Positions 11,284 to 19,956 of a stretch of 22,688 bases of DNA are shown one piece after another. The notes below the pieces were generated by a model. It worked only from the letters and a program-made list of their open reading frames with translations. It was not told the origin of the DNA and did not search any database. The first letter of the stretch is position 1. Every line of letters begins with the position of its first letter. Position numbers and translations under genes: made by a program. Source of the stretch: Thermodesulfobacteriota bacterium (GTDB lineage: Bacteria; Desulfobacterota; Desulfobulbia; Desulfobulbales; SURF-16); NCBI GenBank assembly GCA_039715015.1, contig JBDLIE010000041.1, forward strand, positions 1-22,688, given 5' to 3'.

Positions 11284-11318
11284 AAAAAGCCCATTCGTTT
11301 GAATGGGCTTTTTTTTTT
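11284..11318 (+). terminator. Rho-independent terminator of csp copy 1
   Basis: aaaaagcccattc-gttt-gaatgggc followed by a 10-T run. Confidence 0.9.
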
Positions 11319-11377
11319 GCGTTGCTATTGTCTGGATATCAGCCATCTGTATAAGCTGTATGAGAGGGATTTTTACC

Positions 11378-12280
11378 ATGGAAGAACAACGCAGACAAAA
11401 AAGTATGCTGGCTGTTTATGTCGGTGTGGGAGCAAATGTCCTGCTTGCCGTTCTTAAGGCCAGTTTCGGAATCATCGGCTGTAGTCCGGCCTTGCTTGCA
11501 GATGGTATTAATTCAACCTCTGATGTGGCCTACGGTATAGTTGTTACAGTTTTTCTCAAGCTCTCCGGCAAGCCAGCTGACCATGAACATCCTTACGGTC
11601 ACGATCAGCTGGAAAGTATTGCCGCTGTCGTTGTAGGCGCTTTTGTAATAACAACTGCCATCGCGATTTTTTGGAACACTGTTAATAATGTCTATGAACT
11701 TTGGACAACCACCAGTGACTATGGCGGTGCCAGCATCCTGGCCTTCTGGGTGGCACTTTTTGCCATAGCTCTTAAGATCTGTCTAACTGTTTGGACATGT
11801 CTCATCGGCAGGCAGACAAAGAATAAAGCGGTTATCGCTCTTGCCCATGACCATCGAAATGATATTTTCGCCTCACTTGCTGCTGCGGTTGGTATTTTTT
11901 TTGGCCGGATGGGATATCCCTGGGTTGACCCCTTGGCTGGTACTGTTGTCTCTTTAATCATCCTTCATACCGGGATTGAGATCATCCGTTCCTCCACTGA
12001 GGACCTCATGTCCACCTTGCCTGGGAAGAAATTGGCAAAGGAGGTTAAAGATTTACTCGAGCCGCTTCCCGGCGTAAAGGCAGTTGAAGAGGTCCATGCC
12101 CATCGTTTTGGACCGTACCTTGTGGTGAACCTCGTCATAGGTGTTGATGGCAGTTTGACTGTCTCGCAGGGGGACGATATTGCGACTGAGGCAGAGTCTG
12201 CCTTGCTTGAGAATATAGAGTTTATGCGCAGGGTCTATGTTCACTACCATCCGGTGCTCCCCGAAGAACAGCCAATATGA
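11378..12280 (+). CDS. Cation diffusion facilitator (CDF) transporter, predicted Mn2+-type
   Basis: SPALLADGINSTSD (TM2), PADHEHPYGH, DHRND (TM5), WVDP and a C-terminal cytosolic domain ending YVHYHP. Start reassigned to ATG 11378 (GAGAGGG RBS) because the track's start at 11303 lies inside the terminator. Confidence 0.93.
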   Translation: MEEQRRQKSMLAVYVGVGANVLLAVLKASFGIIGCSPALLADGINSTSDVAYGIVVTVFLKLSGKPADHEHPYGHDQLESIAAVVVGAFVITTAIAIFWNTVNNVYELWTTTSDYGGASILAFWVALFAIALKICLTVWTCLIGRQTKNKAVIALAHDHRNDIFASLAAAVGIFFGRMGYPWVDPLAGTVVSLIILHTGIEIIRSSTEDLMSTLPGKKLAKEVKDLLEPLPGVKAVEEVHAHRFGPYLVVNLVIGVDGSLTVSQGDDIATEAESALLENIEFMRRVYVHYHPVLPEEQPI

Positions 12281-12347: not shown

Positions 12348-13757
12348 ATGCTTATAGCTGCCAAGGTTGTTTTTTTTCTTCTCTGGATCAACCTGCTTCC
12401 GCCCCTTGCTCATCTGCTCTTTGGTAAGCGCTTTTCCTGGCCGCTGGATGGGGGGCTTCTTTTTTTTGACAATCAAGCTCTCTTTGGCAGCCATAAGACA
12501 ATACGTGGTGTTGTGGCCAGTGTTTTGGGAGGGGTAGTTGCCTCCTTTCCCCTTGGCATGCCGTTGTGGCTTGCTGCTCTGGCAGCTCTTTCGGCCATGG
12601 TTGGTGATTTGCTGTCAAGCTTCATTAAACGGCGTCTGCACAAAACACCTGGCAGTTCGATTTTCGTTCTGGATCAAATTTTTGAGGGTTTTTTCCCGCT
12701 TCTGCTTATAAACTGGTTTTCTCCATTACACTGGTGGCAATTTATTCTTGTTTTGTTGGTTTTTACTCCCCTTGCTTATCTGGGTGCTTGTTTCTGGCAG
12801 TATATTAGCTTCCATCCCCACCATGAAGATTACCCTCGGCTTATCCGGTCAACGGTTCGTTTCCGTGAGTGGCGTTCCTGTCATGAACCTTTGGCCCGTT
12901 GGCAGACTGTTCTAAATCTAACGAGTTTTCTTTCAGATCAAATTATCCTTACCTCGTTTTTTAAAATGATAGGACTTTACGCCAGAGGAGAGGCGAACGC
13001 CCTTGACGTGAAAGTTGAACAGCAGTCCTTCTGGCTTGAGGATTTGCCTCCTGCCTTTGATGGGTTGCAGATTCTGCTTCTTACAGATCTCCATCTCGAT
13101 GGCTTGAAAGGTTTAACGGATAAGATCATCAATAAACTGCAATCGTTAGAGGTGGATATCTGTCTGATCGGCGGTGATGTAAGGATGAAGACTTATGGGC
13201 CTATTGCCCCTTCCTTGCGCCATCTGCGTCGAATTATGGCTGTAGTTCGGTCCAGGGATGGAGTTTTCGGTGTCCTTGGCAATCATGACTGTATTGAGAT
13301 GACTCCTGATTTTGAAGAGACAGGGATCACCATGCTTATTAATGATTGCTGGCCTGTCAAAAAGGGTAGCGAGAGAATATGGCTTGTTGGGGTGGACGAT
13401 CCTCATTATTATAAGACACATAATGCCCCAAATGCATTTCGTGACATCCCGAAAGGTGAGAGTGTAATTTTTCTGGCCCATTCACCAGAGGCATATCAGG
13501 AGGCTGCCCACCAAGGAACATCTCTCTATCTCTGTGGTCATACCCATGGTGGTCAGATCTGTCTGCCTGGCAGTGGTCCTCTTTTTACAAATAGTAGAGC
13601 ACCTCGTTTCACCGCGTCTGGCAGATGGCAGTATAAATCTATGATGGGATACACAAGCAGGGGGGTGGGGCCTTCAGGTATACCACTTCGTTTTAACTGT
13701 CCTGGAGAAATTACCCTTGTCACCTTGCAGAAGGGGGCCCATAATTTATCATCTTAA
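12348..13757 (+). CDS. Fusion of a CDP-archaeol-synthase-like (CarS/DUF46) cytidylyltransferase domain and a calcineurin-like metallophosphoesterase (YkuE-like)
   Basis: The N-terminal ~150 aa are hydrophobic with INLLPP..PLDGG..F.D...FGSHKTIRG, GDLLSSFIKRRL and LDQ. The C-terminal part has TDLH, GGD, LGNHD, LAHSP, GHTHGGQ and SRGVG..PLRFNCPGEI. Confidence 0.85.
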   Translation: MLIAAKVVFFLLWINLLPPLAHLLFGKRFSWPLDGGLLFFDNQALFGSHKTIRGVVASVLGGVVASFPLGMPLWLAALAALSAMVGDLLSSFIKRRLHKTPGSSIFVLDQIFEGFFPLLLINWFSPLHWWQFILVLLVFTPLAYLGACFWQYISFHPHHEDYPRLIRSTVRFREWRSCHEPLARWQTVLNLTSFLSDQIILTSFFKMIGLYARGEANALDVKVEQQSFWLEDLPPAFDGLQILLLTDLHLDGLKGLTDKIINKLQSLEVDICLIGGDVRMKTYGPIAPSLRHLRRIMAVVRSRDGVFGVLGNHDCIEMTPDFEETGITMLINDCWPVKKGSERIWLVGVDDPHYYKTHNAPNAFRDIPKGESVIFLAHSPEAYQEAAHQGTSLYLCGHTHGGQICLPGSGPLFTNSRAPRFTASGRWQYKSMMGYTSRGVGPSGIPLRFNCPGEITLVTLQKGAHNLSS

Positions 13758-13870
13758 CAAGTGGGCGAGCGGAATGTTCAGAGAAGGTTTAACCAATGCA
13801 CTTGTTGACGTATGCTGTTTTTAATAGTAGCTGGTTGTCGATATTACGAAAATCTGAGATGGACTAAGTG

Positions 13871-14398
13871 ATGAGGTTTATACCAAATATTTTGTCGAGT
13901 TTGCGGCTTGTTATGGCCTTTGTCTTTCCCTTTGCACCTGAGAACTCCTGGATATGGCTTGTGTTTGCCAGCGGTTGTACGGATTTTCTTGATGGCTGGA
14001 TTGCCAGGCGCTGGCAGGTTGCAAGCTGGCAGGGCGGCCTTCTTGATGCAGTGGCAGATAAGACCTTTGTGCTTGTTGTTCTTCTTTCCATGGCGTGGGC
14101 CGGGAAGTTTTCATACTGGTTCATTCCTGTTCTACTTGCCAGAGATCTTACGGTGGCCTTTACTGCGGCCTATGCTTCGGTTTTGCGACTGTGGCATTCC
14201 TTTCAGGAAATGGATGCTCGTTGGTCCGGCAAAATTGCCACCGCTGGCCAGTTTTTGTTGTTTGTGGTTGTTCTTCTTTTTCCAGCCTATACAAAGCTGG
14301 TGCTTATCGTGGCGGTTCTCTTTAGTTCGGTTGCATCAATTGATTATGGCTGGCTCTTTGTGAAAGCCTTGCAGGATCGGGCCAGGAAGATGCGGTAG
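13871..14398 (+). CDS. CDP-alcohol phosphatidyltransferase (PgsA-like)
   Basis: IPNILSSLRL and the signature DFLDGWIARRW...GGLLDAVADK (DxxDGxxAR...GxxxDxxxD), ARD, GKIAT..Q. Start is ATG 13871 or GTG 13868. Confidence 0.9.
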   Translation: MRFIPNILSSLRLVMAFVFPFAPENSWIWLVFASGCTDFLDGWIARRWQVASWQGGLLDAVADKTFVLVVLLSMAWAGKFSYWFIPVLLARDLTVAFTAAYASVLRLWHSFQEMDARWSGKIATAGQFLLFVVVLLFPAYTKLVLIVAVLFSSVASIDYGWLFVKALQDRARKMR

Positions 14399-14529: not shown

Positions 14530-15207
14530 ATGATTCCCTGGAAATTAGTTGATGCCACTCTGGTGCCCGATTCGTCCCACGAGCTTACCCTTCATAAAAG
14601 GGGGAATGAATTTTCCATTCGGATAGGGGGGGATGAGCTGATGAATAGTAGGGTGCATGGCTCTGAAGAGGCACTGGCAGAGCTGGCCTGTGCCCGTCTT
14701 GGGGAGATAGCCGAACCACGGGTTCTCGTTGGCGGCCTGGGTATGGGGTTTACTCTGTCTGCTGCCCTTGCCAGCCTTAATGGCGTCAGCCGGGTAGTTG
14801 TCGCTGAATTAATCCCTGCTGTGGTCAGCTGGAACCGTGGCCCTCTGGCTTCGTTTGCTGGAAATCCTTTAGCTGATGAGAGAGTGGTGGTGCGTGAGGT
14901 TGATGTAGCGCTTGTCCTGAAGGCAGAGAAAAGGGCATTTAATGCCATTTTGTTAGATGTGGATAATGGTCCTGAGGGTCTTACCCATACTGATAACGAT
15001 TGGCTTTACAGCGACGATGGCCTCCAGGCTGCATCGCAAGCCCTGCGGGCTGGAGGGGTGCTTGCTATCTGGTCGGCTAGTCGGGAAGATTCGTTTTTAA
15101 AACGTCTTCACCGGGTTGGTTTTCAGGTTGAGGAAAAGACGGTACGGGCCCGTGGTGGTAAAGGTGGAAGCCCTCATACTATTTGGCTGGCCACAAAGTC
15201 TTCTTAG
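14530..15207 (+). CDS. Spermidine-synthase-like SAM-binding protein (class I methyltransferase fold), function unknown
   Basis: ELMNSR..GSEEALA, motif I VLVGGLGMGFT, VVVAEL, ILLDVDNGP, LRAGGVLAIWS. Confidence 0.75.
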   Translation: MIPWKLVDATLVPDSSHELTLHKRGNEFSIRIGGDELMNSRVHGSEEALAELACARLGEIAEPRVLVGGLGMGFTLSAALASLNGVSRVVVAELIPAVVSWNRGPLASFAGNPLADERVVVREVDVALVLKAEKRAFNAILLDVDNGPEGLTHTDNDWLYSDDGLQAASQALRAGGVLAIWSASREDSFLKRLHRVGFQVEEKTVRARGGKGGSPHTIWLATKSS

Positions 15208-15288: not shown

Positions 15289-15711
15289 ATGCTTCAGATT
15301 TCTCAGAACATCGCAATTCCAGAAGGTGAGATAGAACTATCAGCCATCCGCGCGCAAGGAGCCGGCGGTCAGAATGTTAATAAGGTTTCATCAGCGGTTC
15401 ATCTACGTTTTGATGTTCGTGGCTCCTCCCTTCCCGATTTCTATAAGAATAGACTCCTGCGCTTGTCTGATCGCCGACTTACCAAGAATGGTGAGGTGAT
15501 AATAAAGGCTCAGAAGTATCGGAGCTATGAAAAGAATCGTGAAGATGCCTTAGAGCGCTTACGAGGTATAATAAAGGGTGTTGCTGTGGTTCCTAAAAAA
15601 AGGAAGTCCACAAAAGCGACTTTTGCTTCGAAACAAAAAAGGCTTGATAGAAAAAGCCGGCGCGGCAAGGTGAAGTCCTTGCGACGCAAAGTCGGTAGGG
15701 GTGATTTGTAA
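15289..15711 (+). CDS. arfB: Alternative ribosome-rescue factor B (peptidyl-tRNA hydrolase YaeJ)
   Basis: RAQGAGGQNVNKVSSAVHLRFD with GGQ motif, NREDALERL, and a highly basic C-terminal tail. Confidence 0.95.
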   Translation: MLQISQNIAIPEGEIELSAIRAQGAGGQNVNKVSSAVHLRFDVRGSSLPDFYKNRLLRLSDRRLTKNGEVIIKAQKYRSYEKNREDALERLRGIIKGVAVVPKKRKSTKATFASKQKRLDRKSRRGKVKSLRRKVGRGDL

Positions 15712-18199: not shown

Positions 18200-18300
18200 T
18201 TTAATATCAGTTTAAAGCTGGCTTGAGCCGGTTAAAAGTAACAAGGTGTTTCGTTAATATAGACGCCTTCTTTACCATTTGCGCCCAGCCGGGTCAAGCG

Positions 18301-19956
18301 ATGCGATTTACCACATTTTTTTTTACTCTTTCTGTTTTTCTCTTTCTGTCGTTAGAAAATCTTCAGGCCCAAGATCTGGCCGCCTGGGTCGTTCGTTTTG
18401 ATATCGATTCCAGAGAAAAGATAGATGCCATCTGCTCCCAGGCCCAGCAAAACCGTTTTGACAGGTTGCTTGTTCAGGTGCGTGGCCGGGCTGATGCCTA
18501 TTATCAGAGCGATTTGGTGCCCAGGGCTGAAGACCTTGAGGCAGAGTTTGATCCTCTTGCTGAGGTACTTGCTAGATGCAAAAATATTGAAATCGATGCC
18601 TGGCTTAATGTCTACTATCTCTGGACCGGTGATACCCCTCCGTTAGACGAAGAACACCCTGCTTTGCGGAGGTCGTGGTTAATTAAGGACAACCAGGGGC
18701 GGCGGGTTGATACTTATAACGCCCTTGAGCAGAGTCAGCGTTGGATTGAAGGTATCTATGCTGATCCTGCTTCTGAGAAGTATCGGCGCTATTTCGTTGC
18801 TGCAGTTTTAGAGGTGGTGCGGAAATATCCTGTGGGCGGAATCCATCTCGATTTTGTTCGCTACCCTGGTTCTTTTTTTGGGGCCGGGGGGGGGCTGGCT
18901 CAGGTGTTTGAGCAGGAGTATGGTCTTGCGGTAAGGGGACTCCCAGAGAAGATCACCCGCCAGGATTTTGCTGCTTGGCTTAATGGCAGCTTGCCAGCTA
19001 ATGAGAGGCGGTTAATCACGGCCCGGCTTATCTGGGATTATCGGCGCGCAGCAGAGGTGAGTGAGCTTGTGGCCATGGTCCGCGCTGCTTTACAAAAAGC
19101 ACGGCCTGGTATTCGTCTCTCGGTCTCTGTTTTTCCTGATCCAGTGGAGGCCTTTTTGGACAAGGGCCAGGACTGGCCGGGCTGGCTTCGGTCCGGCATC
19201 GTTGATGAGCTCTTTGTTATGAATTATTTTGGAGATAAAAATCGGGTCCAGGCCCTTTATGATGAGGTCGTTCAGGTGGCCGGCAGTACTGCGAAGCTTT
19301 GGCTCGGCTTAGGGGCATACATTAAATCGCCGGATGATATCGCTGAAGAAATGTCCCTTTGTCTTGGTGGCAAGCAGGGCACTTGTTTCTTCAGTTTAGG
19401 GCATTTTCTCAGACAACGTAAATCGGTCCGAGCTTATGCCGATGTTGTCCGCAAGCAACAAAAGGTTGAGGAGGTTGTGCGAGGTGAAGGACGGATCAGC
19501 CATCTTGCCGGTGCTCTCCAACAAGTAAAGGCATGTTTGGCTGAATATAAAACCACAAGCTGTGAAGCTGAAGACAATTTACTGCACATGGGTAACGATC
19601 AGCGCCGCAGTCTTTTGGTAAATCACGAAACCAGCCGTCCATGGCTTGAATTGCGGGGGATCTTTAGATACATAAGCCCCTATGATGGCCTTGTAAGGGT
19701 GGAGGAGCAATTTAAGCTTGCCCGTGAGAGCTATGGACTTCTCCTGGAGGGGTTGCCTTTTGATGAGGTAGCACAGGATTATTCCCAGGCAGGGTCCCGT
19801 TATCATGGTGGTCTTTTGCCCCGCCGTTATCTGCGAAAGGGTGATAGGCTGGATGAGATTCTTGCAGAACTGGAACCGGGCCAGATTAGCCCGGTTATTC
19901 CAGTTCATAACGGTTTTTGGGTCTATCAGGTTGTTGACAAAGGAAGGCTGTGGTGA
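18301..19956 (+). CDS. Glycosyl-hydrolase-like family 10 (DUF187/YddW-type) protein with a C-terminal degenerate parvulin (PpiC) domain
   Basis: Signal peptide from ATG 18301; LLVQVRGRADAYY.S, FDPL, IDAWLN, GIHLDFVRYP, QDW..W...GIVD....MNY; C-terminal FDEVAQDYS..GS...GG.L...LEPGQISPVI..NGFWV. Confidence 0.8.
   Translation: MRFTTFFFTLSVFLFLSLENLQAQDLAAWVVRFDIDSREKIDAICSQAQQNRFDRLLVQVRGRADAYYQSDLVPRAEDLEAEFDPLAEVLARCKNIEIDAWLNVYYLWTGDTPPLDEEHPALRRSWLIKDNQGRRVDTYNALEQSQRWIEGIYADPASEKYRRYFVAAVLEVVRKYPVGGIHLDFVRYPGSFFGAGGGLAQVFEQEYGLAVRGLPEKITRQDFAAWLNGSLPANERRLITARLIWDYRRAAEVSELVAMVRAALQKARPGIRLSVSVFPDPVEAFLDKGQDWPGWLRSGIVDELFVMNYFGDKNRVQALYDEVVQVAGSTAKLWLGLGAYIKSPDDIAEEMSLCLGGKQGTCFFSLGHFLRQRKSVRAYADVVRKQQKVEEVVRGEGRISHLAGALQQVKACLAEYKTTSCEAEDNLLHMGNDQRRSLLVNHETSRPWLELRGIFRYISPYDGLVRVEEQFKLARESYGLLLEGLPFDEVAQDYSQAGSRYHGGLLPRRYLRKGDRLDEILAELEPGQISPVIPVHNGFWVYQVVDKGRLW

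Follow-up and report, generated by a model that had tools for sequence, protein, structure and literature searches.

Within the 22,688-nucleotide stretch of DNA analysed here (the window), one open reading frame encodes both a CarS-like membrane cytidylyltransferase domain and a metallophosphoesterase, and a co-oriented gene for a CDP-alcohol phosphotransferase (CAPT) lies downstream. The features are as follows.

12348..13757, + strand: fusion gene (P0001), 469 aa, CarS-like membrane cytidylyltransferase domain plus metallophosphoesterase
12348..12809, + strand: CarS-like domain, aa 1-154, five helices
12810..13043, + strand: aa 155-232 segment, joint plus helices, from predicted structure (pLDDT) and homology
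13044..13733, + strand: calcineurin-like dimetal phosphoesterase, aa 233-462, YaeI/LpxG-like subfamily
13868..14398, + strand: CAPT (P0002), optional partner of the fusion

The initial annotation described a single reading frame joining a CarS-like domain to an intact dimetal phosphoesterase, and this description is confirmed, with the motifs intact. It also assigned the N-terminal domain to the CarS type rather than to CdsA. Profile searches agree: P0001 matches PF01864 (CarS family) at 51.7 bits, above the Pfam gathering cut-off of 22, and the CTP_transf_1 profile (CdsA, PF01148) gives no match on this protein. The domain has the five-helix CarS fold (residues 2-25, 52-69, 73-96, 108-124 and 129-154) with conserved cavity residues, and D34, K50, T51, R53, D87, S91, K94, R95, D109 and E113 are invariant or nearly so. 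Its closest known relatives are archaeal CarS proteins (A. pernix 5GUF; A. fulgidus CarS; PF01864, NF003114), from which it differs in its bacterial host and in its coupling to a phosphoesterase, by fusion or as a pair. Relative to the A. pernix enzyme (ApCarS), E60 is replaced by Arg (R53) and D125 by Glu one residue further on (E113). P0001 scores 70.4 bits against the CDP-archaeol synthase equivalog NF003114, below the cut-off of 148. CarS is regarded as a marker for the archaeal side of the lipid divide. The guess that databases may already hold this architecture was borne out, since similar proteins are present there under the label ‘CDP-archaeol synthase’.

The two domains are connected by a flexible joint (residues 156-163, pLDDT<50) and, after it, by three to four helices that extend to residue 232. 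From approximately residue 187, the fusion shares homology with the extension at the N terminus of the stand-alone phosphoesterase, and the phosphoesterase of split gene pairs can be aligned with the fusion starting at this residue. The segment spanning residues 155-232 probably has a membrane- or partner-binding role. The C-terminal domain adopts the calcineurin-like dimetal fold with a complete set of metal ligands (D247, H249, D277, N312, H378, H398, H400 and H313). Its top NCBIfam matches are E. coli YaeI (87.3 bits) and then Chlamydia LpxG (68.8 bits), both below the cut-offs of 188 and 350 (NF033458), respectively. The ligand series DxH, GD, GNHD, H and GHTH and a membrane-associated setting are common to this domain, LpxG and YaeI (YkuE-type). 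Unlike them, the domain has its own N-terminal extension and is missing GDxxDR; this LpxG motif reads GDVRMK here and GD-x-R-M/G-K in the family. For lipid A, this genome has LpxI elsewhere. Most structural neighbours of the domain are diesterases. An Akkermansia enzyme, reported on the basis of a weak assay to release phosphatidic acid, has ligands (H47, D76, H112, H181 and H203) spaced much like H249, D277, H313, H378 and H400 (PMC12808494). As judged from its sequence, the domain could be a phosphodiesterase, a monoesterase or a pyrophosphatase.

The genome, which is 99.99% complete, encodes CdsA, PgsA, PssA, PgpA and LpxI away from the locus. Its single PF01148 (CdsA) match is on contig C20 (196 bits), and its PgsA gene, on contig C8, scores 148.1 bits (TIGR00560 cut-off 109.1). 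GGGP synthase/PcrB (PF01884) was not found anywhere in the genome, and controls did match. Because a full housekeeping set is located elsewhere and GGGP synthase is missing, the locus is accessory and does not constitute an archaeol route. Both points had been made in the initial annotation, the second from the window and now genome-wide. The missing GGGP synthase also makes DGGGP an unlikely substrate of the CarS-like domain. PLD-type cardiolipin synthase was not found in the genome at E<=1e-50. A 479-aa membrane-anchored PLD-family protein on contig C8 (L190:1390-2829) carries two degenerate HKD-like motifs and gives only faint Cls matches.

The fusion query matches 96 of 301 genomes sampled from the class (E<=1e-40), of which 93 are counted as fusions, including a few broken or contig-end-cut copies, and three are phosphoesterase-only. 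The 25 matches among 401 genomes of the phylum sample comprise this genome, 19 others that are full-length, and five that are phosphoesterase-only. The named relatives belong to Desulfurivibrionaceae, Desulfobulbaceae and Desulfocapsaceae, and on this basis the host is assigned to Desulfobulbia. One fusion is split over two frames (G620:C90:17121-18481), and another match contains three stops (G679:C74:13748-14452).

A stand-alone, 160-aa version of the CarS-like domain is found in Alpha- and Gammaproteobacteria and Kiritimatiellae. Among the best 80 of 573 metagenome loci, retrieved with the CarS-like domain alone, 67 carry a gene for the same phosphoesterase subfamily tail-to-tail with the CarS-like gene, nine are without it, and four end within 150 bp. 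None of these pairs is co-oriented, and the stop codons lie -10 to +35 bp apart in 59 of the 67. Given this convergent orientation, the split genes are not co-transcribed. The 80 loci are close kin (median identity 59% for 55 split pairs) and not 80 independent events. The split pair is also present in two of three plasmid loci (Methylobacterium and Bosea, not Variovorax). In Methylobacterium nodulans ORS 2060, the split pair is MNOD_RS39840/RS39835. The trees of both domains separate the split from the fused forms as two clades (support 1.0) that are only 35% and 41% identical, and each clade retains the pairing. The phosphoesterase subfamily is also found without a CarS-like neighbour (L048, L049, L050, L051, L071 and L192); the CarS-like enzyme is seldom found without the phosphoesterase, whereas the converse sometimes occurs. 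The pair is a widespread, uncharacterised two-enzyme module that represents a variant of known lipid chemistry, and we found no paper on it within the limits of the literature searched.

Beside the module, no conserved glycosyltransferase, prenyltransferase or kinase was found in 128 clustered loci. Only two lipid partners recur in these loci, CAPT and a protein that carries an acyltransferase, and both belong to glycerolipid metabolism. A gene of ~950 aa with ACP, AMP-binding and acyltransferase parts adjoins the module at three loci unrelated to one another, of which one has the fused form and two have the stand-alone form (L014:7610-10459; L074:8908-11757; L124:3-2267, cut). Neighbours of the split pair vary (L076-L155, L074, L075), with stress-type ones being USP, BON, VIT1, trehalose-phosphate synthase and an extra groL.

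A CAPT orthologue is present in 64 of the 301 class genomes, 43 with the fusion and 21 without it; the Fisher test on this co-occurrence takes no account of kinship. In 26 class genomes from three families, the gene sits right next to the fusion in the same orientation (16 upstream, 10 downstream). In the other genomes with both genes, it is further off on the same contig (n=5) or on another contig (n=12). Among the 20 nearest loci, eight have CAPT, six with full flanks do not, and six are cut. Moreover, 50 of the 93 fusion genomes of the class are without CAPT, and it was not found for any of the 19 other fused loci in the phylum sample (nearby or genome-wide by query search) or in any of the 83 stand-alone CarS-like loci. 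The link is real yet optional, and is limited to part of one class. Thus the proposed association of CAPT with the fusion stands for those 26 genomes, in both gene orders, as an optional one, and the idea of all three activities as a core unit is not supported.

P0002 falls below the cut-offs of both the PgsA equivalog TIGR00560 (71.8 versus 109.1 bits) and the CMP-forming cardiolipin synthase family NF053678 (ClsA; 67.3 versus 240 bits). In S. aureus PgsA, residues K83, R110, R118 and K137 are described as binding the glycerol-3-phosphate group (PMC8640168). P0002 retains the four Asp residues, K65, R92 and K122; its version of the basic glycerol-3-phosphate pocket is incomplete, with K65 and R92 retained and the equivalents of R118 and K137 lost. 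Across 120 members of the CAPT family, Ala replaces R118 in 118 and K137 in 117, and Asp directly follows R92 in all 120. The genome's own PgsA has Arg, Lys and Glu at those three acceptor-site positions. Animal CMP-forming cardiolipin synthases are shown with RD, no such Arg, and SK-x-NT (PMC3378450 supplement 2), and P0002 agrees with this published alignment at three positions when compared by eye. By this comparison, P0002 appears to follow the RD, no-Arg and K-x-non-K-T pattern of the CRLS1/Sco1389 type. In contrast to that type, the P0002 clade is separate, Desulfobulbia-centred and often tied to the CarS-like fusion, usually occurs alongside PLD-type Cls, and scores below the ClsA cut-off. 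Some JGI records label CAPT orthologues ‘cardiolipin synthase (CMP-forming)’.

The RD pair and the two Ala residues suggest a non-phosphorylated acceptor such as phosphatidylglycerol (PG), and cardiolipin is the likely CAPT product on these sequence grounds. If so, no phosphate remains to be removed. The initial annotation had cast the phosphoesterase as a terminal PGP-type phosphatase, a role that is not supported, given the loss of the R118 and K137 equivalents and the presence of PgpA in the genome. PLD-type Cls occurs in 45 of 64 CAPT genomes and in 210 of 301 overall, which is the background rate, so CAPT is no replacement for PLD-type Cls across the class.

Sulfate reducers are reported to make alkyl ether lipids, and Ger is argued to convert finished PG and PE, not CDP-DAG (PMC11150832). 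Ether cores would thus need no special activating enzyme. A search of this genome found neither a large Ger/PlsA-type (DUF2229) protein nor an ElbD-size multidomain reductase, all PF07993 matches lying in frames <400 aa. Of 90 genomes selected by hand from the class sample, 80 were searched, and large DUF2229 proteins occur in 8 of the 40 with the fusion versus 15 of the 40 without it. With the protein absent here and no co-occurrence, the ether lipid product suggested earlier loses its footing; the ancestry of the CarS domain is its sole support here. On contig C1 (L158), three clustered genes encode two DUF2229 proteins and a BadFG ATPase with weak scores; the cluster is a split and diverged relative of either PlsA/Ger or the activators of CoA dehydratases.

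We tentatively favor the explanation that the fusion is an accessory two-enzyme shunt that recycles membrane lipid into CDP-lipid, from which cardiolipin is made if CAPT is present. The phosphoesterase would cleave a phosphodiester or pyrophosphate bond to yield a phosphatidate-type lipid-phosphate, which the CarS-like domain would re-activate with CTP to CDP-lipid. Where CAPT is present, CDP-lipid and PG would then probably give cardiolipin; at other loci, CDP-lipid would feed PgsA/PssA. This proposal builds on three domain families with intact catalytic motifs, the first two near-obligately paired and the third optionally linked, in a genome with a separate housekeeping pathway. The substrates, the step order and the cardiolipin product of the module are what we infer from these observations. 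Hydrolysis first is favored because the CarS-like enzyme is rarely alone and the phosphoesterase sometimes is, and because of the diesterase neighbours and the reported activity of the Akkermansia enzyme (PMC12808494). If the five helices and cytoplasmic loops are arranged as in ApCarS, for which reviews give the topology (PMC9385802, PMC7018664), then the phosphoesterase is on the CTP-site side and both active sites should face the cytoplasm.

An unlikely alternative is a cycle in which CDP-lipid made by the CarS-like domain is cleaved at its pyrophosphate by the phosphoesterase, giving lipid-phosphate and CMP and thereby buffering the CDP-lipid pool. LpxG, the second NCBIfam match at 68.8 bits, is described as a nucleotide-lipid pyrophosphatase (PMC4807358), and convergent split genes with nearly abutting stops (59 of 67 pairs, best 80 of 573 loci) would suit opposed activities. 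However, GD-x-R-M/G-K replaces GDxxDR, the LpxG score is far under 350, and opposed activities in a fixed 1:1 ratio on one polypeptide would waste CTP if they were not regulated; no regulatory domain was seen in the fusion. Less probable again is the linear route of the initial annotation, in which CTP activation is followed by head-group transfer by CAPT/PgsA and terminal dephosphorylation, possibly yielding an ether lipid. In 26 class genomes, spanning three families and both gene orders, the three activities lie side by side, and alkyl ether lipids do occur in sulfate reducers (PMC11150832), but most loci are without CAPT, CAPT is without two PgsA phosphate-binding residues, and PgpA is present. 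Moreover, PcrB/GGGPS, a large Ger/PlsA-type protein and an ElbD-size reductase were not found in the genome, Ger/PlsA-type proteins do not co-occur with the fusion (8/40 versus 15/40), and Ger is argued to act on finished PG/PE (PMC11150832). E. coli ynbABCD (CAPT, the CdsA paralogue YnbB, a hydrolase and a phosphatase) is the nearest known layout and carries like gene kinds, which speaks for this route. Like the present locus, it combines an accessory CTP transferase, CAPT and hydrolases with an intact housekeeping route (YnbB: PMC7018664). It differs in that YnbB is CdsA-family, the hydrolases have other folds, and CAPT is a fixed member.

An unusual substrate, such as a polyprenyl phosphate, a bulky lipid-phosphate, or an MPIase-precursor-like pyrophosphate-linked glycolipid that is built and trimmed, seems the least probable of these alternatives. 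Archaeal CarS is described as preferring isoprenoid chains and having wide grooves (PMC9385802), CdsA/YnbB are reported to produce GlcNAc-PP-DAG (PMC7018664), and such a substrate would explain why CdsA is insufficient. Against it, the 128 clustered loci have no conserved glycosyltransferase, prenyltransferase or kinase beside the module, and both recurring partners are glycerolipid enzymes.

Several points count against the recycling shunt. CdsA could re-activate ordinary phosphatidate, so a second enzyme would make sense only for a special substrate or under a special condition. The CarS enzymes characterised so far are reported not to take phosphatidic acid (PMC4244643, PMC9385802). The convergent layout of the split genes, the occurrence of PLD-type Cls in CAPT genomes at the background rate, and the scores of P0002, below the ClsA cut-off and slightly higher on PgsA, also speak against it. 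It is conceivable, but quite improbable, that the bacterial CarS branch and the phosphoesterase reclaim CdsA-refractory lipid-phosphates (ether, polyprenyl or bulky), giving an undescribed bacterial CDP-lipid and a non-standard cardiolipin-like lipid in Desulfobulbia. Should ordinary phosphatidate turn out to be the substrate, what is gained is a new accessory route of lipid remodelling and a correction to the databases, which label such bacterial proteins ‘CDP-archaeol synthase’ even though an archaeol pathway is missing from this host. The fusion reveals what a bacterial CarS-family enzyme is coupled to, and the single polypeptide, together with split versions in culturable Methylobacterium and Bosea, offers a testbed for CarS on bacterial lipids. 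It further suggests that an uncharacterised phosphoesterase subfamily acts on a lipid, and draws attention to CAPT as a candidate CMP-forming cardiolipin synthase of Desulfobulbia.

Other genes near the locus include a CDF cation transporter upstream of the fusion (11303-12280, +) and, downstream, a spermidine-synthase-like methyltransferase (14530-15207, +) and ArfB (15289-15711, +). These three are probably unrelated to the module because they are kept in the closest relatives only. At 18223-19956 (+), the window also encodes a GHL10 glycoside-hydrolase-like protein whose C-terminal match to a PPIC-type rotamase is weak.
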